This document shows positions 4,301 to 40,171 of a stretch of DNA of 64,000 nt, piece after piece. The DNA is taken from NCBI GenBank assembly GCA_002633005.1, contig NMRA01000851.1:16093-80092 (forward strand), given 5' to 3'. The stretch comes from Phoronis australis (Eukaryota; Animalia; Phoronida). The position numbers and the translations under genes were made by a program. Each line of letters opens with the position of its first letter. Position 1 is the first letter of the stretch. The notes below the pieces were generated by a model. The model made no database searches, was not told where the DNA came from, and worked only from the letters and a program-made list of their open reading frames with translations.

Positions 4301-4791
4301 TTCGCCAAGTGAATCCTCTCTTTGACGGAAAAAGTTCTCGAAAGGGACCACAGACATCAAACGTATTAATTATTCCCTTAAGAAATTTTGTAGCGTTTGG
4401 ATTATTGCAAGATCTATAATTGCAAGTATCCAGTTCTTGACTGAGAAATAAATTAAAATCTCCACATACATGTAAAATAAACTTATCGGCATTCATTTCT
4501 TCAATTATTGAAAATATATTACTATAAAAATTCGGATTATCAGTATTTGGACCGTACAAATTTACAAGGATGATCCTCTCTCCATCCATAATTAGTTCTA
4601 TAATAACATAATTTCCCGTAGGATCCTTTCTCACACTTTGAACAGTGAACTCAAAGTTATTATTAAATAGAATAGCTACTCCTCTTGAATTAGTCTTGTA
4701 AGAGCTGAAATGACAAGTATAACCCCACTGAGATTCAATGTACGGCTCCAAATCACAAGCAAAGTGAGTGTCTTGTAGACAATATATGCTA
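1373..4791 (-). mobile_element. 5'-truncated L1/Tx1-clade LINE (ORF2: APE endonuclease, RT core in the gap, C-terminal Zn finger), frameshifted
   Basis: APE motifs IYCLQDTHF, SRGVAILF, NLYGPN, CGDFN, ARLDFF, SDHS. Post-RT motifs KFIWNNK..KRDVL..EEGG and CTFC..ETVDHIFFEC. AATAAA plus poly-A at 1373-1400. TSD aattttgcgaac(a/t)ctt at 1359-1374 and 4792-4807. Confidence 0.93.
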
Positions 4792-5164
4792 AATTTTGCG
4801 AACTCTTAATCATAGACTGTGACAATTAATGTCGATAGTTCGTAGTAACTGCACAAGCCAGAAAGACACTAATTAAGCAACATGTTATATCATCTAAAAT
4901 TACCTGGAATAGAATTTTCGTCCATTATATGGCTATTATTATTAGAAAAGCACGCAGAAAAACGAACACGTGAAAATCACACGGCAATATAGCATACGGC
5001 AATTCACTAATTAATCGAAACTATGTTTTTGTTACACTTGACATTACAAATCTTGTTTAAATTGGCTTGATGTGTAAAAATTATATAAAATAAGGAATGA
5101 AAACGTTACTCATCTTGCAAGAAACCTTCATGTCGTGATGTACAAGTTTTTTTGGAAGATTTTC

Positions 5165-9947: not shown

Positions 9948-11636
9948 TTTTCGAAAGAATGAAGAAAAAGTGACAAATCCAACGGTGCATGTTTTGCTAG
10001 GCGAAACCTAGTGAGAACTGTTTATTCTTGTTTTGGCTTGCTATTGCCGCTCACAACACGTCAGACACAATAGTCGTTTTTTACACATCCATGATTTCAA
10101 GGTAAGAAAACAATTCTCACTTTCCGACTTATTTCTGCACCATATGTAGGGTGCTACGACACAGAAATAACGCAAATAGGATCTTTTATAATAGACAAAA
10201 CTGAAACAAAACGTGTTTTAACTGTCATTTTATTTTAAAACTTTACTTTGAATTGTAATTATAGAAGAAAATGAAAAAACCTCCGAGAAACACGATGTCG
10301 CACAAGCAGTTGCAATCAGTATCCCTGCTGCACACCCAAAAGGACAGGAGCATTGATTTGTACATGTACATGTACTGACAAACCTCAAAGAAAGACAACT
10401 GCGTTCGTTAACTGATGAAACTCATGCACGAGTTTTGTTTCTACGTACAGTTGGTGCTTCAATAATGTCTTCACGTAACCATGTAAAATCACGAGAGAAT
10501 ATTAGACACATTTGGACGTAAGTACTCAATTACTTGTTCCAAATAACCAACAATCGAACCGCCCGAACAACTTTTTAACGGTCAAAACTATTGTCGATTT
10601 TGAATTTCGAATAATTATTATAAACAGCTTATTATTTAAAATGACTTATTCTTATTAAAATGACGTAAGCAAAAAATTGAATTTCGTACCTCAAAAGCGA
10701 GGACCCCTATATTAATATAGGGGGCCTCGCTGAACGGAGGCCGGAGAGCGGGGCCTCCTATATTAATATAGGCGACCCCGCCGAAAGGAGGCCGGAGAGC
10801 GGGGCCCCCTATATTAATATAGGGGNNNNNNNNNNNNNNNNNNNNNNNNNNNNNNNNNNNNNNNNNNNNNNNNNNNNNNNNNNNNNNNNNNNNNNNNNNN
10901 NNNNNNNNNNNNNNNNNNNNNNNNNNNNNNNNNNNNNNNNNNNNNNNNNNNNNNNNNNNNNNNNNTTTCGAAAGAATGAAGAAAAAGTGACAAATCCAAC
11001 GGTGCATGTTTTGCTAGGCGAAACCTAGTGAGAACTGTTTATTCTTGTTTTGGCTTGCTATTGCCGCTCACAACACGACAGACACAATAGTCGTTTTTTA
11101 CACATCCATGATTTCACGGTAAGAAAACAATTCTCACTTTCCGACTTATTTCTGCACCATATGTAGGGTGCTACGACACAGAAATAACGCAAATAGGATC
11201 TTTTATAATAGACAAAACTGAAACAAAACGTGTTTTAACTGCCGTTTTATTTTAAAACTTTACTTTGAATTGTAATTATAGAAGAAAATGAAAAAAACTC
11301 TGAGAAACACGATGTCGCACAAGCAGTTGCAATCAGTATCCCTGCTGCACACCCAAAAGGACTGGAGCATTGATTTGTACATGTACATGTACTGACAAAC
11401 CTCAAAGAAAGACAACTGCGTTCGTTAACTGATGAAACTCATGCACGAGTTTTGTTTCTACGTACAGTTGGTGCTTCAATAATGTCTTCACGTAACCATG
11501 TAAAATCAAGAGAGAATATTAGACACATTTGGACGTAAGTACTCAATTACTTGTTCCAAATAACCAACGATCGAACCGCCCGAACAACTTTTTAACGGTC
11601 AAAACTATTGTCGATTTTGAATTTCGAATAATTATA
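9948..11636 (+). repeat. Near-identical ~670-bp direct duplication (9948-10618 and 10966-11636) flanking an N gap
   Basis: The two segments differ by only a few substitutions, and the second starts immediately after the gap. Confidence 0.9.
10697..10825. repeat. GC-rich minisatellite (~51-bp unit) with palindromic core CCTATATTAATATAGG
   Basis: About 2.5 units are visible before the gap. Each has the palindrome inside GC-rich inverted arms, followed by ggaggccggaga. Confidence 0.85.
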
Positions 11637-14190: not shown

Positions 14191-15896
14191 CAGATCTTTT
14201 CCTGAGCATACGATCTCATTTTGTCTGAAACGGACTATATAACCGCAAAGTAACGCTGTTCTTGAGAACAACTCTATGGCTTGCGAGAGTTGACGGCAGC
14301 CAGTAGGTTACATGCAATGGCATAAATGAGATAGCTTTGTACTTACATGTACCAACCTGTTCCCGTTTATCAGTCGCTGTAATGCAAGCATACAAATTAA
14401 ATTCTCCAACGTGAGACGAGAAGCGCTTCGATCCGTTAGAACATATCGTACCTCCAGTTAGTTTAGTGTATGCCGTAAGCACGTGATAACCCGTTACTTC
14501 GCCGAGGTTCTTTATCTCTCCGTTTAATTACCTAATGCTTGACCATGGATTTGGTTTGACAACGAATGGTCCTCATTCAAGGTCAAGTATTGGCAGATCA
14601 TAACAATCAACACGCGCCTTACTTGATGGCAAAATTGGGAACCGGGCCAGGCTTCTAGCACATCTACATGTATACCTGACAATTGGCACACATCACACAT
14701 GTGCTACTGTATAATGTATTCTCCGCGGTACCATTGGTGTGCAATATGCTTACACATTGAAAGAAGCTCCCATGTTGCAAGCTATTCAATCTCCTGTTTC
14801 ATGTAGCAAACCGAAGTCACTTACAGTGTAGTTCTACGGGTTTTTGAACAGCAGGTCATCAATTGAAAGCAGGTGAATGTTTTACTATGAGACTGACTTT
14901 TTTAGTAATAATGTAATCATAACCAAAAACTTATAGACCCCCTTCATTTTAGGCTAGGCCCGCGCATGAGACAAAATTCTGGTTATTTATGAGCCCTNNN
15001 NNNNNNNNNNNNNNNNNNNNNNNNNNNNNNNNNNNNNNNNNNNNNNNNNNNNNNNNNNNNNNNNNNNNNNNNNNNNNNNNNNNNNNNNNNNNNNNNNNNN
15101 NNNNNNNNNNNNNTTCATAGTTCTTTGATGGATATCCATGGACTTCATTTCAAGTCATCTATTTATTAGCTGACTCTGCTTTCCTTTTACAGATTGATTC
15201 AATTCAATCTGTGGCTCATATACGCCATCTTTGCTGTTTTTAGTGTTTTTTGTGGTACCCGCCTTTCTTTTACCCAATCCGCTCTAATCGTATGTGTGTT
15301 CCTACGGGAGTGAGGACTTGGTGATGATTTTCAGATGTTTCCGGCTACTGTGTTACATCATACATGTAGTTTGAGTTTCGTTTCTCGCATAAATCATTTA
15401 CAGGAACTTCGTTAAATTTGGCAAGTCTTCTAATGAAAATGACAACATAATATGGCGACTTTTGAATGGATCCAACTACCATTCTCTGTGGATGTATTAT
15501 TTCTCCCAACGTCCTATTCATCTTCAAATTTCATTGACATGTTTCGCAGCAGCGGTCTAAAGTTTGCTGAAATTGGCGTTGTAGTTCCACATCAAGTCAT
15601 ATCCCCGAAACGTCCGATATTATCGTGCAATTACTCTTACATGTCCTTATAATACCGACCGAAATCGGTGTATATTTCTGATACGCTCGCTTCTCTACTA
15701 TAATTCTTTCGTTTCTTATTGAATCGGAGTGATTACATGTAACTGTTTTGACCCCCAGATGCTGCCATCATCCTCTCACTTTGCTTGCGAAGTCAGGGCT
15801 GCACATCCCGTTTTATTTGATACAAAACTGGCATACCACAAACTTAACCTGAATTCATAAATAATTGCCTGACTTCCCATGTTCTCTGCGGCCTGT

Positions 15897-17394
15897 AATT
15901 AGTCAGATAACGAGTAGCCGTGTCGCACCCAATTTCTGCGTACATGTACCAAAGCGGCCCAGGCTAGAAAACAGTCATTCTCACATCACGTCTATTCGCG
16001 CTCCGGGGAAAACAGTACATGTACAATAACCCTTGAGGAGTGCTCTTTTGGGGAATACCCTGCCCTCGTAGCGTGTTTTAATGATTCTGAAACGCGTGTC
16101 GATTGACGTCATATGTGGTTTACGTACATGTACATGTAGTTGCTAATTAGAATTTACACATTACCAAAGAAGGCCGATTATAGAGTGGTTAACTTAAGCG
16201 GTGAGATTGTCGTTGTCGTAAGTAGTTCTTCTGCGGCTGTAATAATTGAAAGGGATGAATAGGTTGAGGTCTTACCCATACACCTGACGATGCCAGTGAA
16301 ATGTGAAATAGCTAGGATGCAAGAATATTTAAACGGCGACTGAACCCTATTTTGATGAATTAATCGAATCCTGGCTCAATCACCTGCTGATACGACATTG
16401 GCGTCAGTCTTGAGCGGCAAAAGCAGAAATCAGCCACAAACTCGTACTCCCTCTGTCAAAGATTGAATATTATGATTCTTGGTGGGTGATCACTGAGTTG
16501 CCGGGTAAATCCTATGAAGCTCAAATCACGCTTAATTATTCGTGCAAAAGTCTTTGAAAAGAATTTTCACAATGTCCTCCAAACATAGGCGGCGCACCGT
16601 GCACATAGTCGGCGCACCATACAGTAAGTGGCCGGAAGTTTTAGCCCCGCCCTTTTTTCAATGCTGCACCGCCCATGCCAAAGTTTTGAAGATTTTTGGG
16701 GTTTAACCGTGCTTCAGTGAACTGTTTATATGAATCACTTGGAATATTTCTAATTAGGCAGATCACGAGTAGCCGCATCGCACCCCATTTCTGCGTACCA
16801 AAGCAGCCCAGGCTAGGACCCAGTCCTTGATCAAACCACGTCTGTGTGTGCTCTTGGAAAACAGTACAATAACCCTTGAAGGGTGCTCTTTTGGGCTAAC
16901 CCTGCTCTCGTAGCATGTTTTAATGATTCTGGACCGCGTGTCGATTGGCGTCAAATGTGGTTTAAGTAGCTGCTCATTAGAATTTACAGAGAAGGCTGAT
17001 TACATTTACAGCACCATGTGTTTGTGGTTAACTTACACGGTGAGATTGTCCTTGTAAGTAGTTCTTCTGTAGCTGTAAATAAAGGGATGAATACATGTAG
17101 ATTGAGGTGATAGTTTTGCCGGTAAACCTCACGACAGGAGAGAAATGTGAAATAGCTAGAATGCAAGAGTATTTAAACGGATACTGAACCCCGTTTAGAA
17201 GTCTTTGGGAAGAGTTTTTAAAATGTCCTCCAAACATGGGCTGCGCACCGTGCACATGGGCGGCGCACAATATGACGCCAAGAGCTTTAGCCCCTCCCTT
17301 ATTACAGTGCAGCGCCGCCCATGCTTTGAAGCTTTTCTGGGGTTTGTTGTACTTCAGTGAACTGTATAGATAAGTCGATTGGAACATTTGCTAA
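15897..17394 (+). repeat. Head-to-tail diverged tandem duplication (15897-16753 and 16752-17394)
   Basis: Both copies start aattag.cagat.acgagtagccg and end ggaa.att..ctaa. The first copy has an extra ~200 bp at about 16350-16548. Confidence 0.85.
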
Positions 17395-22334: not shown

Positions 22335-22807
22335 CTGCAAAAAACACAAGATCAAAATCATTAGTTTAAGCTCAGGAGTAGAAATTGGCGGGCAGTTCAC
22401 AATTCCCAACTGGGTTTTATGATGCACTGATTCAACTACATGTAATATTTAGCAAAAACTCGTCTAAACGATACTGCCATCAGTAATGCAGCAACACGAA
22501 ACTACTCTTTTTCACCCGATTATGTATTCTTCGTGAATTCGTACCACTGAGGATTTCTCCTCAGTTGCTACCCTCGAAATTCTTGTTTCATTTTGGCACC
22601 ACCATAACCAAACTATTGAGAATGTCCCGTTTTCTATTTTTCCGCTGCTTCAGTTATCATTCTATTCCAACATGTTTGCATCCAGCTTCATGAAACAGTT
22701 CTAGTATAGAGAATGAACCTGTACTATGCAACTTGAATACACATGTAACTGCTAAAGCATGAAAACCTCACAACTCAACATATTCTCGCCAGCCTTCATG
22801 TACTTAC

Positions 22808-23086
22808 GTGTACATCGAGGAATGTTGCAATAGTCCCAACGCCTCTGGCCGGATTCAGGCCCATAGAGGTAGCACCAGGGGCCACCAATGCTGCGATCGG
22901 CATTCCGGCAAAAATTGTAGTCTAGTTCTCTTAAATATACGTCTCTGGTGAAAGAACCTAACCCCGATAGTTTGTTCGGTGCCCAGTGCCACGGCTGACA
23001 CAAGTGATCGTTTTTAGATACGGATACTTTTCCTCTGAAGGCAGTTCCAAGGTCATCCTCTTTGCATGACTTGTTGGGAGATAAAT
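22808..23086 (-). CDS. Kringle domain exon
   Basis: 279 nt, phase 1-1, gtaagt donor. C..GTAFRGKVSVS..CQPW..NFCRNAD..GPWCY..WDYCNIPRC. The acceptor (cggtag) is less certain. Confidence 0.92.
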
Positions 23087-23583
23087 CTACCGAGGCAGGC
23101 GCATTATAATGCTGAGTGAACTACACTTAATAGAGTCATCATGCTGTAGCTCTGACAAGAGGAAGTCGGTAGATAAGATAATCCATTTCCTGCACTCCCT
23201 GTTGCCAATGTGCACCAATTCGTGTGGAAATACCTACGTCGTTTATGCAGTTGAAATACTGCATTTTCAGTTGGTTATCAAATCAAACGTATGGAGAATT
23301 GCGAATTAATTTAATTCTTTCTAATGATAATCATTAGTTTCCTCTCAGTTAAACAATATACATGTGTGTATGCAATTTTACTCTAATCACAGCAACACCA
23401 ACGGCGTCGTTCATTTAACACCGGTTGGGTATTTCTTCCAGGTTGTGAGGTAGTTAAGTTTCTATCAGAAAAGAAATGCGACATGTAACGTGACAAAGAA
23501 ATATATCACGATATCATCATGCAGGCTACTCCAAAATACCCACGTGTTTGACAGTAGTCTGGAAATCGGTCGGTACCACTCAC

Positions 23584-23736
23584 CTTGGCAGATCTTAGAT
23601 GCCTGCTTCTTCCACGGGTGACAACTTTGACCTTTCAGACTGCCCTCTTTGCAATCCCGAGTTCTTGAACGGGTATGGGTCTCCTTGTCACACGGGCCCC
23701 AGGGCGTCCATTGCCCAAACTGTACTTCATATGTGT
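23584..23736 (-). CDS. Thrombospondin type-1 repeat exon
   Basis: 153 nt, phase 1-1, atttcag/gtgagt. FGQWTPWGPCD...RSRTRDC...C...C. Confidence 0.9.
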
Positions 23737-24854
23737 CTGAAATCATGAAAACGTGGACCCAGAAACTGCGCTAACACACACACTGAGTCCGCTAAACTTC
23801 CCATGGTTCTCACAGGTTATCGACTGCAAGTACCATCTCCGCCTTTTGGAAGTTGAAAATCGCGCGAAAATTCACGTTATCTTTCCTCTCAAATAAGTGG
23901 CAAAGGTATTGTTTTTTATTAGTGAAGCTGAATCTTATGAATATTTGGGTTTATATGGGTTCACAAACTGTACATGTATGTACATGTATGTGTGACCACG
24001 TTTATTTATTGCGTTGATTAAAATGAAGGGGGACACTTAAATGTTTGCACAGATTTCCAAAAGGGCTCTCAACAACATATAATTATAAGTAAAATATAAT
24101 ATAGTCAGGTAGTCAGGGAAAAATGAATACGGATAGCAAAGCAACAATTAAAAGAGGTTGAGAATGTAGAGAATAAATAACTGACGAGGGGTTGAAGAAA
24201 TTACTTAAGAGACATGAAATTCAACAAAGATGTGACGCTAAATATTGAGCGTATTAACACCTGAAAGGCCCCATGTTGTGATATTGCAAAACCACTTTTG
24301 GATACACCTTTCAAGAATTTTGGAAATTGCAGGGAAGTCCGATATTGCTTTACAATTCTCGAAGTGTCTTGAAAACACGAATAACGAACGCATTTTCTAT
24401 CCCACGGGAAACTATGTCGCAATCTCATCGCAGTGATGTCGGTATATAGGCGTAAACATTGTTCACTTCTTTTTCTCCCTTATAATAAAGATCTTGGTAA
24501 GCATTTATCGGTAACGGGCTGATTATTGACTAAGTAACGATATTCGTGCAGTCTGTATTGTTATATATAACAAAGACGCTCGTGGCATACATGTAGATCT
24601 CATAAGTTAAACACGATTATATAACCACAAGCTACTTTTTGGCTTCGACATTTAGTCTACTGTCAAGTAGGCAACAGTATTCATGGTTATGGTTTCGGGT
24701 TGTAGACAGATTCCGGACTTTTAGCCTTTGCATGATTTCATGAAACAGATTTAGTTGTACTAGAATGACATTTAGCTAAAAGAAAAATGCTGCAGCCTCT
24801 TCGAGAAACAAATCCCCGGACCCTATGTTCGGGTTGCTTCACGTATTGACTCAC

Positions 24855-25043
24855 CGTCTGTACACTCGGGTGGGTCACAAAATTCGTAAGTGCTGGAAGT
24901 AGGGTTAGGGTCCACATAGCACCACAGCCGGTTTTGTGTATCGGGAGAATTATGGCAGTCACTGTTGTCGCGGCATTTCTTACCCGTCCGTGTTACTTTA
25001 AGTTTCTCCGAGTGTGCGTAGTTATTACTCCGATCGTAGCAGC
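24855..25043 (-). CDS. Shortened kringle-like domain exon
   Basis: 189 nt, phase 1-1, ttgtaag/gtgagt. CYDRSNNYAHSEKLKVTRTGKKCRDNSDCHNSPDTQNRLWCYVDPNPTSSTYEFCDPPEC. This frame is absent from the ORF track. Confidence 0.85.
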
Positions 25044-25497
25044 CTTACAAGAATTATACGTTATAGGTGGCATGCGTATAATTGACTAAAGTTTCAATTA
25101 GCAGTTGTGAACTTGGGTATTTCACATTATTGAGATCTCAAAATCAATATACTCACCCCCCGTGAAAATCAAACTTCGTTTACCATTTATCGTATGCACA
25201 GATATCAAATGCCGATAAAACCACTTTGCTGTAGTGAAGCAATTACATATTATGGAACATGTCATCTTGTAAAATGTTGGAACTAAATGTACGACGATTT
25301 GAAGTATGGTATTCGCAAGCCAAAAGAAAGATGATTAAACTACAGGTGCTTGAATTTGTAACAACCCTGAACCCTAAAGCTCTCTTTTCAAGAGACTGGA
25401 GGAGATACGGGAACGCATCAAAATGAAATACGAGTTTAAGTAACGATTTAAATCATTACTGGAGGATTCACTTTGTCTTTTTAAACACAATACTCAC

Positions 25498-25704
25498 CGA
25501 TAGGCTCGAAATAAACAGCTACCTCACAAAGCGATAAGTTGTCTTCCGTCGTCGAGACCTTCAATGTGTTGCCATACGTATCTTTTTTACACTTAATTAC
25601 CGTGCCTTTGTTTACTGGAAGTTCGCCTTCCCAATGGAAACATTCCGTTTGTATATCGTCTTCTGTGTACACTAACAGCTTGATGTTGCTCAGTGGTCTC
25701 CGGA
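25498..25704 (-). CDS. F-type lectin domain 1, C-terminal half exon
   Basis: 207 nt, phase 1-1, ccttgtag/gtgagt. RRPLSNIKLLVY..ECFHW..IKC..YGNTLKV..LSLCEVAVY. Confidence 0.9.
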
Positions 25705-25756
25705 CTACAAGGTGAAGATAAATATGAAATACACAAACGCAGAGGGAGAGAGAACA

Positions 25757-25763
<7 letters not shown>

Positions 25764-25790
<27 letters not shown>
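25764..25790 (+). repeat. (GA)n microsatellite
   Basis: Direct reading. Confidence 0.95.
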
Positions 25791-25795
<5 letters not shown>

Positions 25796-25994
25796 AGGGA
25801 GGGAGGGTGAGGAAGGGTGGAGTTATACATGGAATATTATAAAGATGGGGCAAGGGCTAGAGAGACAAATTTCATCGAACAGAGTTCATTGATCATCCGT
25901 GTGACATTTTTGGGCTTGCACAAAGGTCAGCGATGAATCGGCCAGGAGAGTTAAACTTCGAACTGAGTGTCGACTGCAAAGCATCAATTCAAAT

Positions 25995-28900
25995 GGGGCT
26001 ATTCGGAAAATCTGCAATAACTAGAGGGCATGCTTGTACTAGTGGTGATAGATTAACAGCCTCGACTTCGCGAGCCCTTTAAATACATGGTGAAATGGCT
26101 TGCAGCCGTGCAACTGAATCTGAGATTGCGTAAAAAGGGTGCTTCTAAGAGAGGAAGTAAGCACGACCTCATACAAAGGTAAGGTTTGTGATTATTTTAA
26201 CAATTATTCCATGATTATTCTACCGATGCCTGTTAACTGAGGCACTCGCCGATGTCGACTTCGCGGCAGTCAGTCGCCAGCCATTGTCTGGTTAATCTTT
26301 GTATGTTGTGACATGTGATACGATACTTGATGTAGCAATCGGGATCTTTTCGTAGATCAAAGCATTATTATTGTTTGTAATGATTTCTTAAAGTTTATCA
26401 GTGACAGTTACACATCAATCAATGCTGAATGTTTATGCTGTCAACTCGATACAGGCTAATGAGTTAAGATTACAATCCAATCCCAATGGCAAAGGGTACG
26501 TGAGTGATAAATATCCATTGCATTAGACTATTTGTTTACTCCCTATCATCTTCTTCTGGAAATCTATTACACGTTGAAATGGAAATCTATCACGTCAGTT
26601 TTCACGTAACCTTTGGTTTTTAGGTTTGAAGGCTTCTACCGTGCAGAGGAGATATGCATCGCTTCTGCGCCGTCCCTGAATGGACAAAAATTGTTTTTTA
26701 GCATTTGACTGCAGCTAACCAACAAGATCTTCCCATCCAGTGCAGATCTGTTGTCAAAGCCTACATGTACTTTCAATATTGGAGACAACGAACAAAGCCT
26801 TTGAAAAAGAACAGCTATTTTTAAAGTCATTTTGTTAAATTACTTATTCAGGCCCCAAGGGGGGATTGGCATAGGGGGTTGTAATATTTGGTACAACGTG
26901 TGGAAATAACAGGTAATACATGTTCGGGAAAAGAGCATGGTGTGGTAATTCTTAACCTTCATGAAGTCCCTTCAAGTTGATTTCATGAAACTCTTTTGCT
27001 ACTTGTATCAATTGTAAAACCACGGAAATATATTACATTTTCTGAATTCACAGTGACTGAATAGTCTTAACTCATGCCTTGAAAGTCGTTATGAATTCAA
27101 AGGACTGCCATTTTTGTGAAATATCATTTTTGATGGTGCCTTAAGATTTGTAATTACTCTTAAACAACAGAAAGATTATCCATGACCCAAGTCTTTATAT
27201 CGTCTATTAAGAGAAAAACGATTCCCTCAACCTTAGGCTAGAAGTATGCTTGACAGACCCATGAACCTGTAATCTGAGTTTAAAATTGCTGAAAGTATCA
27301 AAATTAAAAAGGCTTGAAAATGGGTAACAAAGGTTTGAAGTTGTCTCAAAAACTTGTATATTTTACAGACAAGTGATGCGTTTAAAGAATTGTTATGGCT
27401 AGGGATAAAAAATAAAGACACAGTTTTATGCAATACTCATTATATACACCCTTGGTTTCTGAAAATAGCAATTATTTACTTTTATGTAAAACTGTAGACC
27501 AATCACCATATATTTTTGAAAAACAGGGATAACATTTTGATCCAATCTGGAGTACTTAATTATTCATATTTCAATATTTGTTCCAGGATCAGTGACATTT
27601 TAAGGCCACTTCAAACTGTATCATAGACAAGCTTTGTTACTCCGTTCTCTTCCCACAGCACTTCCACAAACCAGCAGTGCTGCATGGCACAATATGCTAG
27701 TCAGTGGCCCTGGAGAAATGTGAATCGCAGTACTAAGTTACCATAAGACAATGTTCCAGTGGAGTGTCTGTGTATCCAGACGAACTATATCTGACTGCTA
27801 CACAAATAAGCCTTGTTGGTGAGGATGCCCTTTCATAGACAATGAGTCATGTGTGGAAAATAGCTTATTTCCTTTCCTTGAAGAAACATGAGAGACTGAA
27901 GCTAAAGAAGACCTAGTCACACTCTGGTCTAGTTCAGAGTCTGATTTTGGGCTCAAAACGATTCAACTGATATGCTGCTGTGTTTACCTTCAATGGTCTA
28001 ATTGTGGATGTTATTGAGGCTTAATGAGGTTATATGAAAGAAAGCCACGTGTTGAAACTGGATCTTTTTTACAAGCACTTCTATAGGCCATTTAAACTAG
28101 AACCCAGTCAAATGAAAGCCAAAAGCTGAGTGACATTAAATTTTCCTTTCAGAAGAAAGGCTTTATACTATCGGTAAAAACTTTTCAATTTGGTACAGAT
28201 TATGGGGAAATGACATTCAGTGACTGCATCAATTGTCTTATTGTATGTTTTCATTTGTAGCTAGAGTAGCTGGATAAGAATTTGCTATGCACAAAATTCG
28301 AGAATAAACAATTATCAGTATATTTAAGAACGAATGGCAAACTGAAAAAGCACAGAAAGAAACAACATTGCGAGGGAGTCCATAATCAGGCATATCAGGT
28401 ACTGAATTTCTGAAATACGCTCAATTTTCTCAGGTTATTGCTGAAGGATTGCTTTTCACTTTCTCCAACGGTGAAATAGATGGTCAGGCGGTTGGTTTCA
28501 GTTGTTTTTTCTTGCCTGTAACAGAATAGAAATATAAGCAAATTGTAAAAGAAAAGACAAGACAAAACTACTTTTGTAAGGCAGAACATACTTGACCTTT
28601 CATCTTCATGCTTATGTGTAGAAACTAATAACCTTTGTACCCAAGTCTTATTTAATATCTGAATTAAAATAAGTGAAACAGGCTAAAAGTGATTTAACAT
28701 TGTGTATTTTTCATGACACTTAAAATGTGCTTCTGATCTCAACAAGTAAAATTCATTCTAGGTGTCAATTTTTTTCCAATGCAATGTTACGACAGTTACT
28801 GAATTAAGGCTTATTCATGTTAATTCGATAACTGAGCTGGTGGTCCTGGGGGTGGGGTCCACGATAAAATAAGGAAACTCACTCATCTAGAGAATTTTAT

Positions 28901-29297
28901 TGGAAACAGCATAGTTTTGAAGAGAAACTGCTGTGAAAAAGTCACTCTTGACTTCTGTGCATCACGTACTATACACCTCTTATCTTGGGAGCACTCCCAC
29001 CCAGGACAATATGAATATGTGCTGCTAGCCTATCCGGAATCAGGTGAGTTTCCAAAAAGAAACACTTAGTTCGACTCTATAAACCTGTTATTCAGTGGAG
29101 TAACTGGTGGGGATAACATCACCGAACGATGTTGATAGAAACTGATTGCTAAAAACTTACCAAGTAATGTTGTGTAGTCTCCGAATGGAAAAATTCCATC
29201 ATTTACCAGTTGTTTACATGCAGACAGCCACGCATGCGCAATTCAATCACCACTAGTACAGCAGCGACACCGCGAGCAGAATTCTCCGAATAGCCCC
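25995..29297. mobile_element. 3.3-kb TIR DNA transposon, copy 1 (PIF/Harbinger-ISL2EU-like, decayed)
   Basis: Termini ggggctattcggaaaatctgc / gcagaattctccgaatagcccc, flanked by AT on both sides. Homologous along its length to 36031-40171. Confidence 0.8.
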
Positions 29298-30463
29298 ATT
29301 GGCATTGCGTTTGGCTGCGTTGATTAAGGTGTTTCAAGGTTCTGGTTTAAAATCTCACGTTATCTCGAGGGGTTTGTGGACAAGTCTATGACTTCACTCA
29401 ATTATCTAGAAGTGCACTGTACATAGTGCAAGGCTTATCCCTTGGAAAGGGACAGAGGACTCCACTTCCCCCCGTATAATCCAGCATTCTTAACGAGCGA
29501 AAGGTAGAAATGTCCGCCAACAACCAACCACGTCTCTAAGTAAGTGATCATTTTATATACTACTATGAAACGGACCTTGGATTCACAGGTATTCCTTCAG
29601 GTTAACGGGTCTCAGAAGTCGAAGAGCAGAGCGTCATTTTCATCCTTTAATTTGCAGCCTAATAAACTATAAACTCATGTTTAAGATAATGTACACACAG
29701 TACGCTTGTACATCCAAGATCAACACTTTGGTCAACTTCGCAATATCACATCGCATAAGTAATATATGATCCATGAGAATCTTTCAGATACCCTACCTTA
29801 TAAATTGTTCTCTAGAACGCTGTTTTAAAAGATTGCACTTTTCAATAAAGACCTACTGTATCTGTACACAGGACTGGCATGATTTGTCTAAGCAGGTTGA
29901 AATTAGTCAAAATCACGACAATATTTTAAAAATTGCAATAGCGTTTCTGAAACAGTACGTTGATTAGTCTTGGGTCAGGAAGTTAGTTATGTACTTGACC
30001 GTGTTAGTTTGCTAGGAATGTAACGTTCGATCTGTTTGTATTTTAAGTATCGTTACGTGAGCATCTTATTGTTATACTGGTTTACTGAAAACACTGACAT
30101 TTTACCCAAAATCTGCTGGCAAAAAATCGTGCTTTTGCTATAGTTTGTACAAACTTTTCGATATACTGTAATCCTGCATAACATTGATCTCGCTGGCACA
30201 TGAATATCCCAATTAATCTTTACATAATCATCCATTTTTGAAGTTGCATGACTTTCCTTTGGGAAGGGGCCGTTTATCAAGACCAACGCAAATTAAATTT
30301 TTAGTCTTTTTGTAATATCTAAAACGAACCAATTTAAAACTGCTCTCCACATCGCAGGTTATAACTATGTGCAAATAACAGAGAAAAAAAATTTGGGTGT
30401 AATAACAGCCACCATTGTTTAAGAAACTAATGCTAACTATTACTTTTCCACTTCATTAGCTAA

Positions 30464-30711
30464 GGGACCCGTTCCAACAAAACTGACTTAGCTAAGACAA
30501 ATCTTAAATTTTAGTAAATTTTAAAATAAAAGTTAAGTTCATTTCAAAACCAATTCAAGAAAGAGATCTTAAGTTGACTTAAGTGTTTAACAGAAGTTTT
30601 GTCTTAATTTTGTCAAACTTACCGAATGTGGAAGTTTCAAAGTTTAGAAGTTAAGACAATTCTTAAACTTAAGTCAAAAATGAACTTAAGTCAGTTTCTT
30701 GGAACAGGCCC
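30464..30711. mobile_element. Harbinger-like MITE, inverted homolog of 18355-18608
   Basis: gggacccgttccaacaaaactgactta ... taagtcagtttcttggaacaggccc. Shares the internal cttaccgaatgtgga motif in the opposite orientation. Confidence 0.7.
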
Positions 30712-30859
30712 CAGATCTACATCAATACAAAGGGCGTGCTGAATAGGCCAACGGAATCAGAGCGGTGACCATTGTAAGCTAGAAATTTTCAACATGAAAA
30801 AACATACGACCTCCAGGAGCCTTCCGACAACTACAGGGATAGAATTGGGAATTTCTCAT

Positions 30860-31740
30860 CTTGTTATCATAATCAACCTCAGTGGTGTGATTTAAAGTTG
30901 TAGGATCAGGAAAATGCTTATCCAATATGACTCTGGGGAATTCACTAGATGAAGTAGTGCATGTCCATCAACGCGTAGGATTGTCTCCAAATGAACAGTC
31001 TGATCTTCCCTCAGGACCTGAACAAGATAGACTTGACCATTCCTGCCACGAGCTCCGATTTGTGACACAGACTGTCAATTCATTTCACTATCTGCACGTA
31101 AGGCAATCCTATGAGATTTCCTTGTAATCCGGAAGAGAAGTGAGCTCTTTGGTCCATGAAATCTGGCGATTAGTTTTTCTCCTGAGACTTATTACTCTTG
31201 TATTGTGAGCAACATTACGGACTCTAGTCAACGAATCTGGGACAGTATCACATAGCTTGTGAACTGATTTCAGCACGTGTGCGGAAATCCTGTCAATCAT
31301 TTTTAATGATTTTGCTATACACAGTGTATAGGGTACGGCGAACATGTAAATTAACACCTTGAATCCAATATACCCGTAACATAAAAAGATACATGTAGGA
31401 CTGTGAATCTACTATCCAACACCTAACCGCATCAACTGCAAGTATATTCACTAAATTCAGGTTAAAGATCTCGTGGCGATTCATAAAAACAAAAGCACTT
31501 TCATTTTGTCTGTTGCAAATGGTCAGTTTATTAGCGACATTTATTTTTTACACGGATACATCTCTACAATTGGAAACAGAACTATTGATCACCTCATGGA
31601 GAACAATGGCATCACACCTTATCATTAAAGGACTCTGACATTTACTGCATAGTTGTGGAACACTGTATCAATTGGAGGTTCTTCAACTGGTTCCTTGTCA
31701 TATCTGCTGATATACAGAAACTTCGTGCTCATTAACGCCA
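30860..31740 (-). mobile_element. Highly degraded LINE (CR1/L2-like) ORF2 3' remnant
   Basis: Broken frames resembling post-RT LINE sequence (...VRNVAHNTR..., CSFGDNPT then HYFI in a shifted frame), with many stops. Confidence 0.4.
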
Positions 31741-33997
31741 AAAAGGTCGCACACTACAGTGGCAGCAGTGATAATTTAGATATCAAACCAGCTGCTATTG
31801 GCCTCAAGATGCTATCCAGTCGCTCGTAATATGGTTTTGTATAACGAGAAACGTTAAAAGGGAACTGTATTTTATTCTGAATAAATTTTGGATATTTTTT
31901 CTATGAACTGTTGATTAATTTCACAAATAATTCAACAACAAAGAGCAAACTTATATTCTCTGACCAAGCTCAAAAAATTACAGGCTTGTAGCGCTGCTTC
32001 TTGTGACGTATTTGGCGGGGGAAAAGTCACTGTCCTGTGTTAGCGTGCAGTCAAGTGGCGTTTTTCATATTGTCAGAATAAGAAATTTTAGAGTGAAATG
32101 TCGGGTCACCAGGGATACCTGATTGAGTCGAGGCAACACAAAGTGATACCCAGTCGTCGTCATCGCCAGACGAAAATTTGCCGGACGGGTGCAACCAGTC
32201 CGTGTCAACAATTTACACTGGTTTGACTGTGCCGTGGGCAGTGTGGACTCTAGCCAGTCAGTCAGCCAGCTGCCTGCCAAAACTCAGCTCTGTAAACTTG
32301 AAGACTTGGTTAGTTACCGACTATAGCTGTATGACTATCGTACCACTGTGTGTTGAGCTTCGTTAACCCCGAAATTTCAGACAGCCGTTGACAAATCAGG
32401 TACAGTTGACTTTTGCTCGTCACCTTGTCACAAAATTAAGGCTACTTCAACATATAAAGGCAACGGACCGGCGGGGGCGCATGCAAAATCTGGTATAAAC
32501 GGACACTCACATTGTTCGCTGCAGCCGCTTAAGTTGAAAACAATCAAATAAACGTCATTTGGTAGCATATTTTGCCGCCATTTGTAACAAAGAAGTGGTT
32601 TGTCCGTTTCAGAAACATGGTGCACTCGACATTTCCTAAAAATTTGAGACGTCTTTCGGGACATGATGACAGCTTCCCAGCACCAAAGTTGTTCTAAATT
32701 TCGGTTTGCTGGCATAAAAATACTAAAAACATGTAACGAAATGAAACAAGTTCCGATAATTTATTGTAACATACATGTATACGTGTACATGCACGCAACT
32801 TAGGTACCGGCAGCGACGATAAAAGAATCGGGGGAAAAGAAACTGGTAAAGGTCAGGTGACTTAATCGCAAAAGCAGACTTGAGAGAACACATCACAACT
32901 TTAGCAGCAGCCGATGAACGATCGCTTTTCCAACACCGGTAAATACTGAAGTTAGTTTACTCTAGGAACCTGTTTTCTAGCATTACTCAAGGGTGAGATT
33001 ACATGTAGTTTGAATGACATTAATTTTGAGTAAGGTTTGGGCCAAGTCTTGGGTAATCCGGCGATGGTATGCGATGACCATCCCTTTAGAAGGCACCTTT
33101 TCGAAAAGTGTGAGCAACCGGGTGCCATAATAAAAGGTATAGCGAACCTTTTACAACACTGCAGCAAGCAACAAAAATAAGGACGATTGATACATTGATA
33201 AATTACGATGTAAAGTCTTCAAAATATGACATAAGCAATGAATGTGTAAAGCAGCCGATACCCAGCCATTCACGTAACTGACACATCAGCCAATCAGCGA
33301 TCGCTTTCAGGATTTAACCATGAATACGAATCGGCTTTTGTTTGACACGCAAGTCAGGCAAATGTGAGTTTTATTTGTATGTTAGAACCGATTAACTGCA
33401 ACATCATTTTGACTACAGTCCCCTTTAAAGCACCGTGTTCCCCTTACAGTAACGCTGTTGGATCAGAGACACAAAACATGTCTCTTTATTTGCATACTTC
33501 TTTTGTTGCAGGAGGACAATACCCTACAAAAATAACAATCCAGTTGAAGAAGGCACAGCGCCAAAAGTTTTATGATATTTGTCGCCAAGCAATCAGCTAT
33601 TGAAACCTGGGCAGGTAATTTGATGTCATTTGCGCGCATTACACGGTTTGGCCAAGAGTACCAAAAAACAGCAGAGGTCAGGTCAATAGGTTCTTCAGGA
33701 AGGAAGTTTTAAAGTCCGACTATCTCCTTTTAAATTATACAGGCTTTTCCATAAGTTGCCTTTCACATTAGACCAGTGTTGAAGGTGGGTAGCAGTGGCA
33801 CGCAGTACATCACCCTATAAAAAGTGGGTACCACACTCGTGGTACATACTGGGCTTCCCATATGCCAATGATGGCAATGTGTCGGGCTTCGTAACCAGTA
33901 ACCGTCGAACGATTAATGACGGGATTTAAGCCCAAGTAATCAAAACCTGTTTGAACCATTTGGCTTAATAACATTGGGATGTATCTGCAGGAATTGA

Positions 33998-35596
33998 AGG
34001 AGAATACCATCCGATTGAATTAGTTTTTTTTACCTTCTATATCCACATCGCCTCTTACACGGTCGACCTCATCTTGCCGAGAGGTGTTGCGTAACCTGTG
34101 AGGAAAGTGAGAAACGACGCAGTGACGTCAGTGTTTCGTCTGCTCAGTGACTACCACTATATTGCGGTGTATCGTTCCCGCTTGTCGGAATTATGAAGCA
34201 ACCAAGAGAGCCCGGAATGCTTAGGAAGTGGCTCGCAGTAGTGAAGAATGAAAGGTACACTGTTAATAGCAAGTATGAAGCCGTGAATCATCTCCGTGTC
34301 TGTGGCCGGCATTTCTTCGACAGTGATTTCTATGACGAATTCCGGCTTACCAAAGAAGTATCCATACGTTCCATTGCCTGTGCATGTTCACGGCGCCTCT
34401 CTAATATTTCTTGATCATTGTACATCGGTTCGAACTGATAGCCTGTGAAACCTAAGGACCCGACCCGATGAGCTCTCGACTAAGTCAGGACTGGCGCCGG
34501 ACGAGTTGCCAAGTAGATATTTATTATTCTGCGTTCCGTTTCAAAATGAATTATTCTCATCCTAACCAATGCTTACATAAAACTGAAACAAAATTTGTCT
34601 CAATAGATAAAATTACAATGCCTTTGCGGTGTTCGTGAGCTCCAATGTTGAGAAACCAGCAATGAACAAACCACTTCGTTATCGTTTTTTGATGCCGGCA
34701 GCAAAGGTAGTCCGTTTAAGCGCGTGCTTATTCAGTGTTTGCTAACAGAAAGCTGTTTTGGAACAATTACTCGATTTTGTATGCTATGGTCACATGTTAG
34801 GGGAATTTTTATTTAGAAATACAAATACAGTATTCAACTCATTGTTTCTGCACAACCTTTGCTCTGACGGTCTGTGGAAGGGGAAACCGTTTTCGCCGCC
34901 CCCGAAAAGTAAGTAGATTTTCAGTTTCGTGGCTAATTCACATAAATAATTACGTGCAAATTATTTCTTTGGATCATTTCAAATGAGAATATGTTTATAC
35001 ATGTAGTCTTTTCGTGACTGCAGGTTTTGTTTCCAACTCAAGGTGGTTTATGTTCGTGCCAGTCTCGGCGTTCGCGACGGGCCTGATCGAGTTCCGAGCC
35101 ATCGGTCAGGATAACAAGCGATTTGCGTGTTCAGAACTCAAAAAATCGCAACTCTAAACAACACAGATCTAGGTTCTCCTATCTGTATTTCACGGAAAAA
35201 TACTTTGAATTTATCTCCGAACATACCTCAAACTTCTGCTACGGACCTTGGTAAAATGGCATGCAGATCTTTGTAGGCTACGGTGTGTCCAAAGACCAAT
35301 AAATCCGTAACAGCGAAATAAAACAACACGTTTGTATAAGAACTCGGTGTACTTTTAAGGGATTTACATCGAAATTTGATGCTTTATTGGTGATAAACGA
35401 TGATTTCAAGCGGTAAGCTGACACCAATAACCAGTGTTGTGAACTCCTGAACAGACTGCGTGTGAAACCAATTGGAAAATTTCAACACCTCGTCTGCCGT
35501 CAGGTGTCAGGTGACGCAACCGAACGTGCCGTTGTCGAGTAGAACTACTCGATCTAAATTGATACAAAATAGGTTGTTTTTTGGTGGCATTCTCCT
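33998..35596 (+). mobile_element. Kolobok-like non-autonomous DNA transposon with THAP remnant
   Basis: ttga|aggagaataccatcc ... ggtggcattctcct|ttaa (TTAA-like TSD, AGG/CCT ends). THAP pieces CIVPACRN and PREP..RKWL..RVCGRHF at ~34165-34360. Confidence 0.75.
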
Positions 35597-35650
35597 TTAA
35601 GTGACGGGCGGTGGGCTGCAGACTGGGTATGTAGGTAGTTCGTGCTCTCA

Positions 35651-35986
35651 TCATGTAGCATCCTTATGATATCGGAAAAAAGAGTTCAGGTGCCTGTACT
35701 GTACACAATGCAGATCGCTGGTTCGTGTCTTTGCGAGTCGGTCTACATTTTCGTTGCTGTTAATACCTACATGGACCCTCACCCAGTGTTCATTGACGTT
35801 TGTTACAACTGCAAGTTTGTTAATCTCATTAGCGCAAGCATTAGACAAGACACTTGGTTTCTGCAGGGGTTTTACTGCAACTTTGGTAATTGAAAACATG
35901 GTAATGGACCGGTTGACCACCTTTTCATTGTACTCGCGTGACATAAACAATGATACTTCCAAGCAGCTCAAAACAAGCAATCGCAT
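35651..35986 (-). mobile_element. RNase H fragment of a non-LTR retrotransposon (I/Nimb/Ingi/LOA-like)
   Basis: HWVRVHVGINSNENVDRLAK matches the RNase H motif W-V-x-x-H-x-G-I-x-G-N-E-x-x-D-x-L-A-K. Confidence 0.7.
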
Positions 35987-36030
35987 CTATTTATATGTTA
36001 CAAAGCATAATTAATACATGACTGCATAAT

Positions 36031-39000
36031 GGGGCTCTTCGGAAAATCTACAATAACTATAGGGTGCGCGTGTACTAGTGGTGATAGATTAATAGCCTCG
36101 ATTTCGCGAGCCCTTTAAATACATGGTGAAATGGCTTACAGCCGTTCCAACTGAATCTGAGATTGCGTAAAAAAGGGGCTTCTACATGTATGAGAGGAAG
36201 TAAGCACGACCTTATACAAAGGTAAGGTTTGTGATTATTTTANAAATGCTTACAGCCGGACAAAATGTTGTGATATCCTAGATCCGCCACTGCAATCAAT
36301 GCTGATTGTTTATGCTGTCAGCTCGATACAGGTTAATGAGTTAAGATTACAATCCAAGCCCAATGATAAAGCGCGGTACATGACAAATATCCATTGCGTT
36401 AGACTATTTGTTTACTCACTATCATATGTCTTCTGGAAATCTATTACACGATGAAATGGAAATCTATCACGTCTGTTTTCACGTAACCTTTGGTTTTTAG
36501 GTTTGCGGGCTTGTACCGTGCAGAGGAGACATACATCGCTTCTGTACCATCCCTGAATGGACAAAAATTGGTTTTTAGCATTTGACTGCAGCTAACCAGC
36601 AAGATCTTCCCATCCAGTGCAGATATTTTGTCAAAGCCTACAGTACAGCCAGTGAATTATTAGACTCTCTCCGGTGTCTCTCCGGTCTAGCCACCCGTGA
36701 CCGTAACCGGAGACAGACCGGAGAGTGAGACGTGAATCAACCGTGACAGCTGGAATGAGCCTAACCCGGATTTTACCGTGAGTTAGGCGTGAACAAAGCG
36801 CGAGCCAGCCGTGAGCCAGGCGTGAGTTTACCTACATCGCAGATGAAAAAGTAATTTATCAAAATTATATCAGAAACTAGCAGTTATGTGTGTGTTCTCA
36901 TACACTTTTGCTCATGTGAGGTTTATTTTTTTGAAATCGTCACGTTCAGCAAAAGACCAAAATTTTCTTCTCAAATCTTAAGTCACTTCAGGAAACAGAC
37001 CTGTGGACTATACTTTTCACTTATATATAATTATTTGTTTTTATATAAACTAATAAAGAATCTTAACACGCGTGTACATGGCGAACTTATTCAATTGCCT
37101 CCACGATATAAAGGAGCATAGCATGTCAATTCTCAGCACATTGATACCAAGTTCCGGCTTCAAGCGGAGAAAACTGATCGTGCCCATGCATTTGACCAGT
37201 CAAACAGATCACTGCTATTATTATTTTAGTGAAGAAGTACCCCGGAGATACTGTGAACTCAGTCGAAACGCATGTACTACGTGGATGGGGTTACAAATAC
37301 ACTGTAATTTAACTGCACTACGGATTGAGGACTTTTTAGTCAAAACATTTGCTTGCAGGAAGGGATGGGTATGTCAGAGTGGCGGCCTATTGAATTTTTG
37401 TGTACCCCAGTGCGGTGAAAAAATTTACGAAGTGACACAATACTTCAAAAGATGCATAGGCTATTTTTAGGGCAAATTAACTATACCAACACGTGACAAG
37501 TTTATAGGAGTCCACAGCCATGTAAAGACGACTCTGGACACAGGGTTGCGTATATTCGTATTTACTAATCGTGGTTATTGTACATGTATGTCGTTGATGG
37601 GACTGGCTCTTAAGTCGTAAATAGAAAATGTACATGTAACCGTAACACAAGATGAGCTGCAGGAAGACGTTTGTATGAACAACACGTGGAATTACAAAGT
37701 GTAACCCAAGTGTAATAGGTGAATGCTTGCAAAGATACTATATAATATACTATAATGTCTTTGCAACTTGTCCGAAACGACAGGCAATCAAGACGTTACA
37801 GGTATTTTTATTGATTAGACCGGTGCCCTACCATGGTTACCACAGGTACCGAAGGCGTGAAGAAAGCCTGAGGAAAGCGTGAACTAAACCAGAGGCAAGC
37901 GTGAGGACTACCCGGAGATTGGGCGTGAGGTGACCGTGACTGATTTCTGTCACGCCTGCGTTCCGGCTCGGCTCCGCTCTGGCCAGGCGTGAGGTAGTCC
38001 GGACGAAGTCTAAAAATTCAGTGGCTGTACTGTACTTTCAATATTGGAGGCAACGAACAATACCTTTGAAAAGGAACAGCTATTTTTAAAGAAAGGTATG
38101 TAAGTCATTTTGTTAATTTACTTATTCAGGTCCTTAGCGGGGGATTGGCATGTGGGGTTGAGGTTGTAATATTTGGTACAACTGCATGTGTGGAAATAAC
38201 AGGTAATACATGTTTGGGGCAAAGAGCATGGTGAGGCAATTCTTAACCTTCATGAAGTCCCTTCAAGTTGATATCTTGAAACTGTTTTGCTACTTGTATC
38301 AGTTGTAAACCAATGAAAATATATTTACATTTTCTGAATTCACAGTGATTGAATAGTCTTAACTCATGCTTTGAAATGTTGCAAGTCGTTATACATTCAA
38401 ATGTCTGAAATTTTTATGAAAATTGCATTTTTGATGATGCTTTACGATTTGTAATTACTCTTAAACAACAAAAAGATTAGTCATTTTTAAATTACCCAAG
38501 TCTTCATATCTTCTATTAGGAGAAAAATTAAAAGTCTGAGAAACGGTCCCCTCAACCTTAGACTAGAAGTATTCTTGACAGACCCATGAACCTGTAATCG
38601 GAGTTTGAAATTGCTGAAAGTATCAAATTTAAAAAGGCTTCAAGTGATATGCTGCTGTGTTTACCTCCAAGTGTCTAATTGTGGATGTTATTGAGGCTGA
38701 ATGAGGTTACATCAAAAAAGACACATATCGAAATTGGAACTTCTTTACAAGCGCTTCTATAGGCCATTGAAACTAGATCCCAGTGAAATGAAAGCCAAAA
38801 ACTGAGTGACATTAAATTTTCCTTTCAGAGGAAAGGCTTTATACTATTGGTAAAAAATTTCAATTTGGTACACATTGTGGGGAAATGACATTCAGTGACT
38901 TCATCGATTGTCTTATTGTATGTTTTCAGTTGTAGCTAGCTGGCTAAGAATCTGCTATGCACAAGATTCGAGAATAAAGAATAATCAGTGTACTTAAAAA

Positions 39001-40171
39001 CAAATGGCAAACTGAAACAGCACAGAAAGAAACAACATTGCAACGGAGTCTATAATCAGGCATATCAAGTGCTAATTTCTGAATTACGTTCAATTCTCTC
39101 AGGTTATTGCTGAAGGATTGCTTTTCACTTTTTCCAAAGGTAAAATAGGTGGCCGGGCGGTTGGTTTCAGTTGTTTTCTCTCACCTGTAACAGAATAGTC
39201 GGAGAAATATTAGCATATTGTAAAGGAAAAGACAAGACAAAACTACTTTTGTAAGGCAGAACATACTGGACGTTTCATCTTCATGTTTATGTGTAGAAAC
39301 TAATAACCTTTTTACCCAAGTCTCATTTAACATCTGGATTAAAATATGTGAAATAGACTAAAAGTGATTTAACAATGTGTATTTTTCATGACACTTAAAA
39401 TGTGCTTCTGCTCTCAACAAGTAAAATTCATTCTAGGTGTCATTTTTTCCAACGCAATGTTACGACATTTACTGAATTAAGGCTTATTCATGTTAATTCG
39501 ATAACTGAGCTGGTGGTCCTGGGGGTGGGGTCCGCGATAAAATAAGGAAACTCACTCATCTAGAGAATTTTAATGGAAACAGCATAGTTCTGAAGAGAAA
39601 CTGCTGTGAAAAAGTCACTCTTGACTCCTGTGCATCACGTACCATACACCTCCTATTTTGGGAACACTCCCACCCAGGACAATATGAATATGTGCTGCTA
39701 GACTACCCGGCATCGGGTGAGTTCCCTAATAGAAACACTTAGTTGCACTCAATAAATATGTTATTCAGTGGAGTAACTGGTGGGGATAACATCACCGAAC
39801 GATGTTGATAGAAACTTGATTGCTAAAAACTTACCAAGTAAAGTTGTGTACATGTAGTCTCCGAATGGAACTGCATACAGTAGTCATAGAGCAAACACGG
39901 GGCTTCAGCATCCACACACTTTTTGTCAGTTACTTGACTCTTTTGACCGCAATTGTCCACGGATATAGTAACTTTAGGTCTTTTGGGAATTTTGGTCACC
40001 TGTCGAAGACTTGCACCAAAGAAAATAGAAGTAATAAGGCTAAGGGCGACGACGTATTTTGATAAGAATTCATCTTTTATCAGTTGTTTACATGCAGACA
40101 GCCATGCATGCGCAATTTAATCACAACTAGTACAGCAGCGACACCGCGAGGAGAATTCTCCAAATAGCCCC
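36031..40171. mobile_element. TIR DNA transposon, copy 2 of 25995-29297, with nested insertions and an internal deletion
   Basis: Same ggggct..cggaaaatc / gaattctcc.aatagcccc termini and AT flanks. Lacks ~27320-27965 of copy 1. Carries inserts at 36641-38032 and ~39870-40065. Confidence 0.8.
36641..38032. mobile_element. Nested non-autonomous TA-TSD element (Tc1/mariner-type ends CAGTA...TACTG)
   Basis: 26-bp TIR cagtacagccagtgaattattagact / agtctaaaaattcagtggctgtactg. TA at 36639-40 and 38033-34. Subterminal (c/g)cgtga repeats. Absent from copy 1. Confidence 0.88.

Follow-up and report, generated by a model that had tools for sequence, protein, structure and literature searches.

A 64,000-nucleotide stretch of the Phoronis australis genome (contig NMRA01000851.1), the whole of which was analysed and is called the window here, carries two copies of one DNA transposon family, the host copies, that differ at an equivalent TA dinucleotide. 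This TA of the host family is seen in three states: empty in sequencing reads, filled in host copy 2 by a nested 1392-bp element with CAGTA...TACTG ends, and scarred in host copy 1, where it reads TACATGTA. The scar in copy 1 is probably the leftover of an excised element. The site is a genuine and well-formed instance of a known process. Its mechanism is textbook, and published work already covers both this footprint and the comparison of three states.

Filled, scarred and empty states of one TA

The host copies and the site within them are positioned as follows.

25995..29297: host copy 1, a non-autonomous DNA transposon of 3.3 kb that ends in GGGGC...GCCCC, flanked by AT at 25993-94 and 29298-99
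36031..40171: host copy 2, in the same orientation as copy 1, flanked by AT at 36029-30 and 40172-73
26762..26769: scar in copy 1, likely an excision footprint, its empty state known from reads
36639..36640: left TA target copy, from the empty-site joint 36638 to 38033 in reads
38033..38034: right TA target copy, from the sequence of copy 2

Host copy 2 reads gcc-TA (36639-40), the insert (36641-38032, 1392 bp), TA (38033-34) and ctttcaatattgg. At the equivalent TA, host copy 1 reads gcc-TA (26762-63), CATG, TA (26768-69) and the same ctttcaatattgg. The copy 1 scar at 26762-26769 is TACATGTA, that is TA+CA+TG+TA, with 6 bp more than the empty site. A first-pass annotation, made from the letters of this DNA, had described a filled site and a footprint at one position in two host copies, and both strings are present as described, except that the copy 1 string ends at 26782, one base beyond the 26781 given there. 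CATG in copy 1 equals, as that annotation claimed, the first two and last two bases of the nested element.

The empty state was obtained by aligning four sequencing runs of one organism, representing at most two samples, to copy 2; the window itself may derive from the contig runs among these data. The joint with the highest read support on copy 2 skips 1394 bases, equal to the insert and one TA, from 36638 to 38033. It is supported by 285 raw reads with 150 starts and by contigs in all three contig runs. A host consensus that already carries TACATGTA at the site, which would have been at odds with the footprint, is rejected by these reads, as they show a plain TA. The reads thus give an empty TA as the state of the family, and the filled and the scarred states are both derived. 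The scar joint is not among the best 15 of 126 joints by support, so scarred host copies are at most a minority.

The scar has the form expected of a cut-and-join event. A Tc1/pogo-type transposase supplied in trans would cut two bases inside each element end, and end-joining would leave the two-base overhangs of both ends, CA and TG, in place between the duplicated TAs, for a net gain of 6 bp. Excision of Tc1 is reported to leave non-complementary 2-nt 3' overhangs (PMC4490562), and a +4 scar, given as the typical somatic footprint, is reported in 78% of somatic events (PMC13148408). The Tc1 footprint has been written taCATGta (PMC3520976), and footprints of Tc1/mariner elements are described as products of end-joining in which terminal bases are repeated (PMC6943129). 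The TACATGTA scar is thus the product known as the Tc1 footprint. That the transposase of the CAGTA-ended element cuts in the Tc1 manner is inferred.

The nested element

The nested element and its parts are positioned as follows.

36641..38032: nested non-autonomous element, 1392 bp, ends CAGTA...TACTG, Tc1/pogo-like, multi-copy
36641..36666 (+): left terminal inverted repeat, 26 nt, 24/26 match to the right end
38007..38032 (-): right terminal inverted repeat, 26 nt, 24/26 match to the left end
37581..37638: two TACATGTA words (37581 and 37631) within the element, from a word count

A TA flanks the element on either side, where the 285 reads of empty host copies have a single TA. The right boundary is also marked by a contig from another copy of the element, which aligns through 38035 and then continues into other sequence. 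When all TA-CA...TG-TA pairs in the window were ranked, the nested element came first, with 22/24 matches. The runner-up (19/24) uses the nested element's own inner TA, and all other pairs have at most 17 matches and no other support. The corresponding inner boundary, 36646-38027, was rejected: its match is the weaker one, and the empty-site joint removes exactly 1392+2 bases.

The element is dispersed and multi-copy, with a read depth of 32-273 along its length in 1177 million letters, and most of the reads are unlike the window copy. Copy numbers, estimated roughly from Hi-C read depth at an 85% likeness cut-off, are 0.03-0.23 nested-element copies per Mb, taken as ~0.07. A Pfam scan found no coding remnant in the element. 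Among 35 open reading frames (ORFs) and 19 read-through frames scanned, no transposase was matched in Pfam, and PHROGs gave no match either. The first-pass annotation had proposed a search for an autonomous partner with the same 26-nt ends; run on metagenome contigs, it returned only chance matches. The two candidates (L001 and L002) share a likeness of only 18-19 bases, one of them within a bacterial gene, and were rejected as chance. The word (C/G)CGTGA is clustered near both ends of the element, at 36695-36825 and 37855-37992, mostly on the same strand at both, and these clusters are possible candidates for transposase binding sites.

The host family

The two host copies have unrelated flanks and are therefore separate insertions of one family, 8.2% apart (205/2492 aligned bases). 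A segmental duplication or a pair of haplotypes is rejected by these flanks and by the AT duplication that each copy has of its own. Both copies show this duplication on both sides, in an A-AT...AT-T context, and have inverted ends that start with GG. From these sequence features the host appears to be a decayed, ISL2EU-like DNA transposon; it is named only ISL2EU-like because the ends and target fit but no transposase or YqaJ domain was detected. Searches of six frames in Pfam and of PHROGs gave no match to a THAP-HTH-DDE transposase or to YqaJ. A stop-riddled frame at 27590-27910 (+), likewise with no match in Pfam or PHROGs, may resemble the YqaJ nuclease; it sits in a 648-bp segment of copy 1 that is absent from copy 2. 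Besides the nested element, copy 2 has two more scars, and its assembly shows a one-base gap at 36243. By the same rough read-depth estimate, there are 0.2-1.9 host copies per Mb.

Two other structures of the family were seen in the reads. A deletion subfamily spans 36529-38282, with the site region gone (37 reads, contig depth 2844). At 38919 of copy 2, 624 raw reads exit the host into a loose end that starts with CAGTAG, which is pogo-type-like but has no preceding TA. This may mark a large host subfamily with a further nested element at this position, or with a segment missing from both window copies.

TACATGTA scars across the window

The window holds 63 occurrences of TACATGTA at 57 sites, where Markov models of orders 0-2 expect 1.4-1.9 and order 4 expects 11. 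The next most frequent TA-NNNN-TA word occurs 8 times. Eight TACATGTA sites lie in the aligned parts of diverged repeat pairs, a count that leaves out a 99%-identical duplicate whose scars are shared. Seven of the eight prove to be insertions into a TA, and in no case do both paralogues have the scar. Two lie in copy 2 (36183 and 39849), one was judged against the reads (26762), and four belong to a tandem duplicate (15941, 16016, the double scar 16125/16131, and 17092). The eighth, at 34998, is ambiguous and stands beside a gap. The tandem duplicate (15896-17394) is ~15% diverged, and all four of its aligned TACATGTA sites are 6- or 12-base insertions at TA. The two further scars of copy 2 are as follows.

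36183..36190: second scar in copy 2, a plain TA in copy 1, from the copy alignment
39849..39856: third scar in copy 2, a plain TA in copy 1, from the copy alignment

A blind count gave 49 short insertions or deletions (indels) with clean flanks, by a flank filter that excluded 17092. Eight of these are six-base indels; four are exact rotations of CATGTA and one more is a one-letter variant. The lone 12-bp indel among the 49 is a double scar. Scars have a mild flank preference, for A at -3 (p 0.0003) and G at -1 (p 0.002), and occupy 3/443 host TA sites and 57/4290 TAs of the window. Stacked scars, TACATGTACATGTA, occur at six places (9241, 10361, 11378, 16125, 41029 and 42364), two of which lie within one 99% duplicate; scarred sites therefore appear to have been struck again.

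Several observations concern the surroundings of the scars. The words TACAGTA and TACTGTA occur 28 times in the window against ~11 expected, two of them being the ends of the nested element; the excess possibly represents 3-base footprints of another family. Pfam matches in the window include remnants of long interspersed nuclear elements (LINEs) and a Kringle exon (E 2.4e-14), a content that marks it as animal DNA. One TACATGTA, at 4467, lies in frame within a LINE endonuclease remnant (ORF 4245-4805, - strand), immediately before what we take to be the GDFN motif of the endonuclease; it likely added two codons to the remnant. Beside host copy 1, at 22752-25822 (-), exon-like frames contain the Kringle domain and a weak thrombospondin-1 match, and none of these three frames has a scar. 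A 670-bp duplicate of 98.7% identity at 9949-11635, across an N gap, is probably an assembly overlap.

Source of the scars

Scars number ~900 per Mb in the window against ~0.07 copies per Mb of the CAGTA family, a ratio of about 10^4 to 1. The family is far too rare relative to the scars to be their evident sole source. The scar itself holds only CA and TG, so it names no element family, and one pair cannot identify the family behind the scars. The first-pass annotation had taken the two host copies to link TACATGTA directly to excision of CAGTA...TACTG elements. Its reading of TACATGTA as an excision footprint agrees with the Tc1-type fit and with the TA-to-TACATGTA insertions found elsewhere in the window, but the link to this particular family goes beyond the data, since CA and TG are also the ends of a Tc1 footprint and the family is so rare. 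Behind the excess stand either many families over a long time or excision far outrunning fixation. An unlikely, stronger form of the latter is a germline with a near one-way cycle of insertion and excision, in which CA...TG elements would, for each copy retained, be lost or fail to fix thousands of times, and repair would nearly always leave one and the same scar.

In Phytophthora, a footprint origin was dismissed on grounds of abundance (PMC3520976). A limited literature search turned up no report of dense TACATGTA scars from any invertebrate genome, and supplements of genome papers may bear on the matter.

Kinship of the host copies

The relationship of copies 1 and 2 was scored on 25 host-region rows among the 40 listed of 1940 rows of differences between the reads and copy 2. 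With six that fall where copy 1 has a deletion and one minor variant set aside, 18 scored sites are left, each with at least 85% of reads differing from copy 2. At 16/18 copy 1 has the base of most family members and not that of copy 2, and the other two sites are beside indels. Reads 90-95% alike to copy 2 make up 52%, and 8.2% is the modal distance between family members. From the 16/18 sites, the 8.2% distance and the likeness of the reads, the host copies share no long branch, and the first-pass description of them as sisters from a filled template is not borne out by these sites or by their ordinary distance. A parent-daughter pair made early in a burst is compatible with this result, as such copies would share almost nothing either. 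Early-burst shared descent in turn requires an old insertion. The nested element differs by 11.0% (672 bases) from contigs of its other copies and the host by 11.1% (3449 bases), and at 12/15 listed difference rows of the nested element at least 85% of reads differ. This equal apparent age of insert and host fits an insertion-first history, which needs it.

History of the pair

The history that we favour is the weakest step of the explanation and is inferred. The element would have landed in one host copy early, during expansion of the host family. The filled copy would then have duplicated ~10 kb away by local transposition, before mutations of its own gathered, and later the element would have excised from copy 1 and remained in copy 2. 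We hold this whole chain, early local duplication of a filled copy with later excision from copy 1, tentatively, at somewhat below an even chance. Shared descent stands narrowly ahead of independent hits, in part because a coincidence has a chance of only 0.4-2%: a chance scar at this TA is expected at 0.4% (1/240 TA sites), at 1.2% when TAs are weighted by the flanks of 55 other scars, and at 0.7-1.9% from the scar rate inside host copies. The closeness of the copies also counts for a shared history, as 0.5-4% of host copies would be expected to have a neighbour within 11 kb by chance.

Several points weigh against this history. None of the 16 unambiguous sites carries a shared derived substitution, and a shared branch of more than ~17% of copy 2 divergence is excluded at 95% (31% when the two doubtful sites are counted). 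Shared descent needs the insertion to fall within a short interval. The age comparison uses the 24 longest of 6833 contig pieces. The argument from proximity is weakened by three other same-family repeat pairs that lie 12-16 kb apart in the window (44949-45742/58841-60103, 34709-35600/50731-51667 and 18353-18606/30468-30714), the first of which has long inverted ends beside TTAA. By the learned flank preference the site ranks 14th of 240 TAs, and Stowaway elements are reported to have entered and left one TA repeatedly (PMC1925063). No scarred host subfamily is visible among the best 15 of 126 joints. The metagenome contigs and the Pfam scans of ORFs and frames yielded no autonomous partner.

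Much of this evidence would suit independent hits, a less probable but serious alternative in which each copy was struck at the same mildly preferred TA and the scar is the footprint of another insertion, of this or any other CA...TG family. The two host copies are not nearer to each other than family members usually are, scars are common at host and window TAs alike, the site has 2.8x the average weight, and the six stacked places show re-hit sites, as does the Stowaway precedent (PMC1925063). The example was moreover picked from a very large scan, in which a coincidence of 1-2% is bound to turn up. For this single pair, however, the chance is only the 0.4-2% given above, and the closeness of the copies would have to be one more coincidence, as would the similarity in age between insert and host.

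It is improbable that the scar arose with no lasting insertion, through an aborted or instantly reversed integration or through repair that wrote CATG between TAs, with the filled copy incidental. Such an origin would account for the ~10^4 scars per CAGTA-family copy (by read depth, with the scar density of one window), for the window's 57 scar sites beside a single intact CA...TG element, and for the uniformity of the scar, while excision is described as mostly imprecise both in rice, for natural events, and in the C. elegans germline (PMC4423477, PMC4490562). However, the added bases equal the element's terminal bases and do not repeat adjacent sequence, and what results is the Tc1 footprint already known; the excess could be the joint work of many families, and filled copies vanish over time.

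Still less probable is an old gene conversion or gap repair that moved the insertion or a filled tract between the neighbouring copies, with excision from copy 1 afterwards. The copies are near each other and in the same orientation, and excision breaks are known to undergo homologous repair (PMC2874221), but identity is not raised around the site (15/209 mismatches nearby against 194/2443 overall). The missing tract rejects a recent conversion and leaves only an old one. A local hop of the element from copy 1 into the identical target in copy 2 is very improbable: such hops are described for Tc1/mariner elements (PMC2874221), the same flanks would give the same preference and no host kinship is required, but the element would have had hundreds of TA sites to choose from within 10 kb, under a weak preference.

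Significance

If the germline runs the near one-way cycle described above, which is unlikely, TA-to-TACATGTA would be a major mutation class, accounting for roughly one in ten short indels that separate repeat copies here, and the three-state site would tie this class to a named CAGTA family with a findable, testable transposase. Excisions usually leave nothing datable, and a uniform scar at ~1 per kb makes them countable. With nested sites in a high-copy host, the state of every TA (empty, filled or scarred) can be placed on a tree. A non-regulatory origin is also offered for an overrepresented palindrome of a kind that motif searches take for binding sites.

Comparison with known systems

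The host resembles ISL2EU transposons, an animal-genome family for which an AT duplication within A-AT-T and GG-starting ends are described (PMC4482050), but at ~3.3 kb it is decayed, and transposase and YqaJ domains were not detected in it. The nested element is like the pogo-like miniature inverted-repeat transposable elements reported as pogo_NA (PMC3845634) in its TA target, inverted ends starting with CAGTA and noncoding sequence. It differs from pogo_NA in ends that diverge past base 5, in its bigger size and in its repeated subterminal CGTGA words.

The scar shares with that of Tc1 in C. elegans a TA target, two bases from each end between the TAs and a gain of +4 (PMC3520976, PMC13148408, PMC4490562). 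There, footprints are described as somatic and called rare in the genome, whereas the window scar is heritable and present at ~1 per kb, and the transposase behind it is putative. Sleeping Beauty likewise leaves end-joined terminal bases between two TAs, but its TACAGTA/TACTGTA footprint (PMC6943129) retains three bases from one end, in contrast to two from each end in the window scar. A parallel to the three states is reported for Stowaway, also non-autonomous and Tc1/mariner-type, in intron 4 of Triticeae beta-amylase, where filled, footprint and empty forms occur at one TA (PMC1925063). Those sites are orthologous sites in grasses, with varied footprints, and independent re-insertion was concluded for them, whereas the sites described here are paralogous, belong to one animal and carry a uniform scar.

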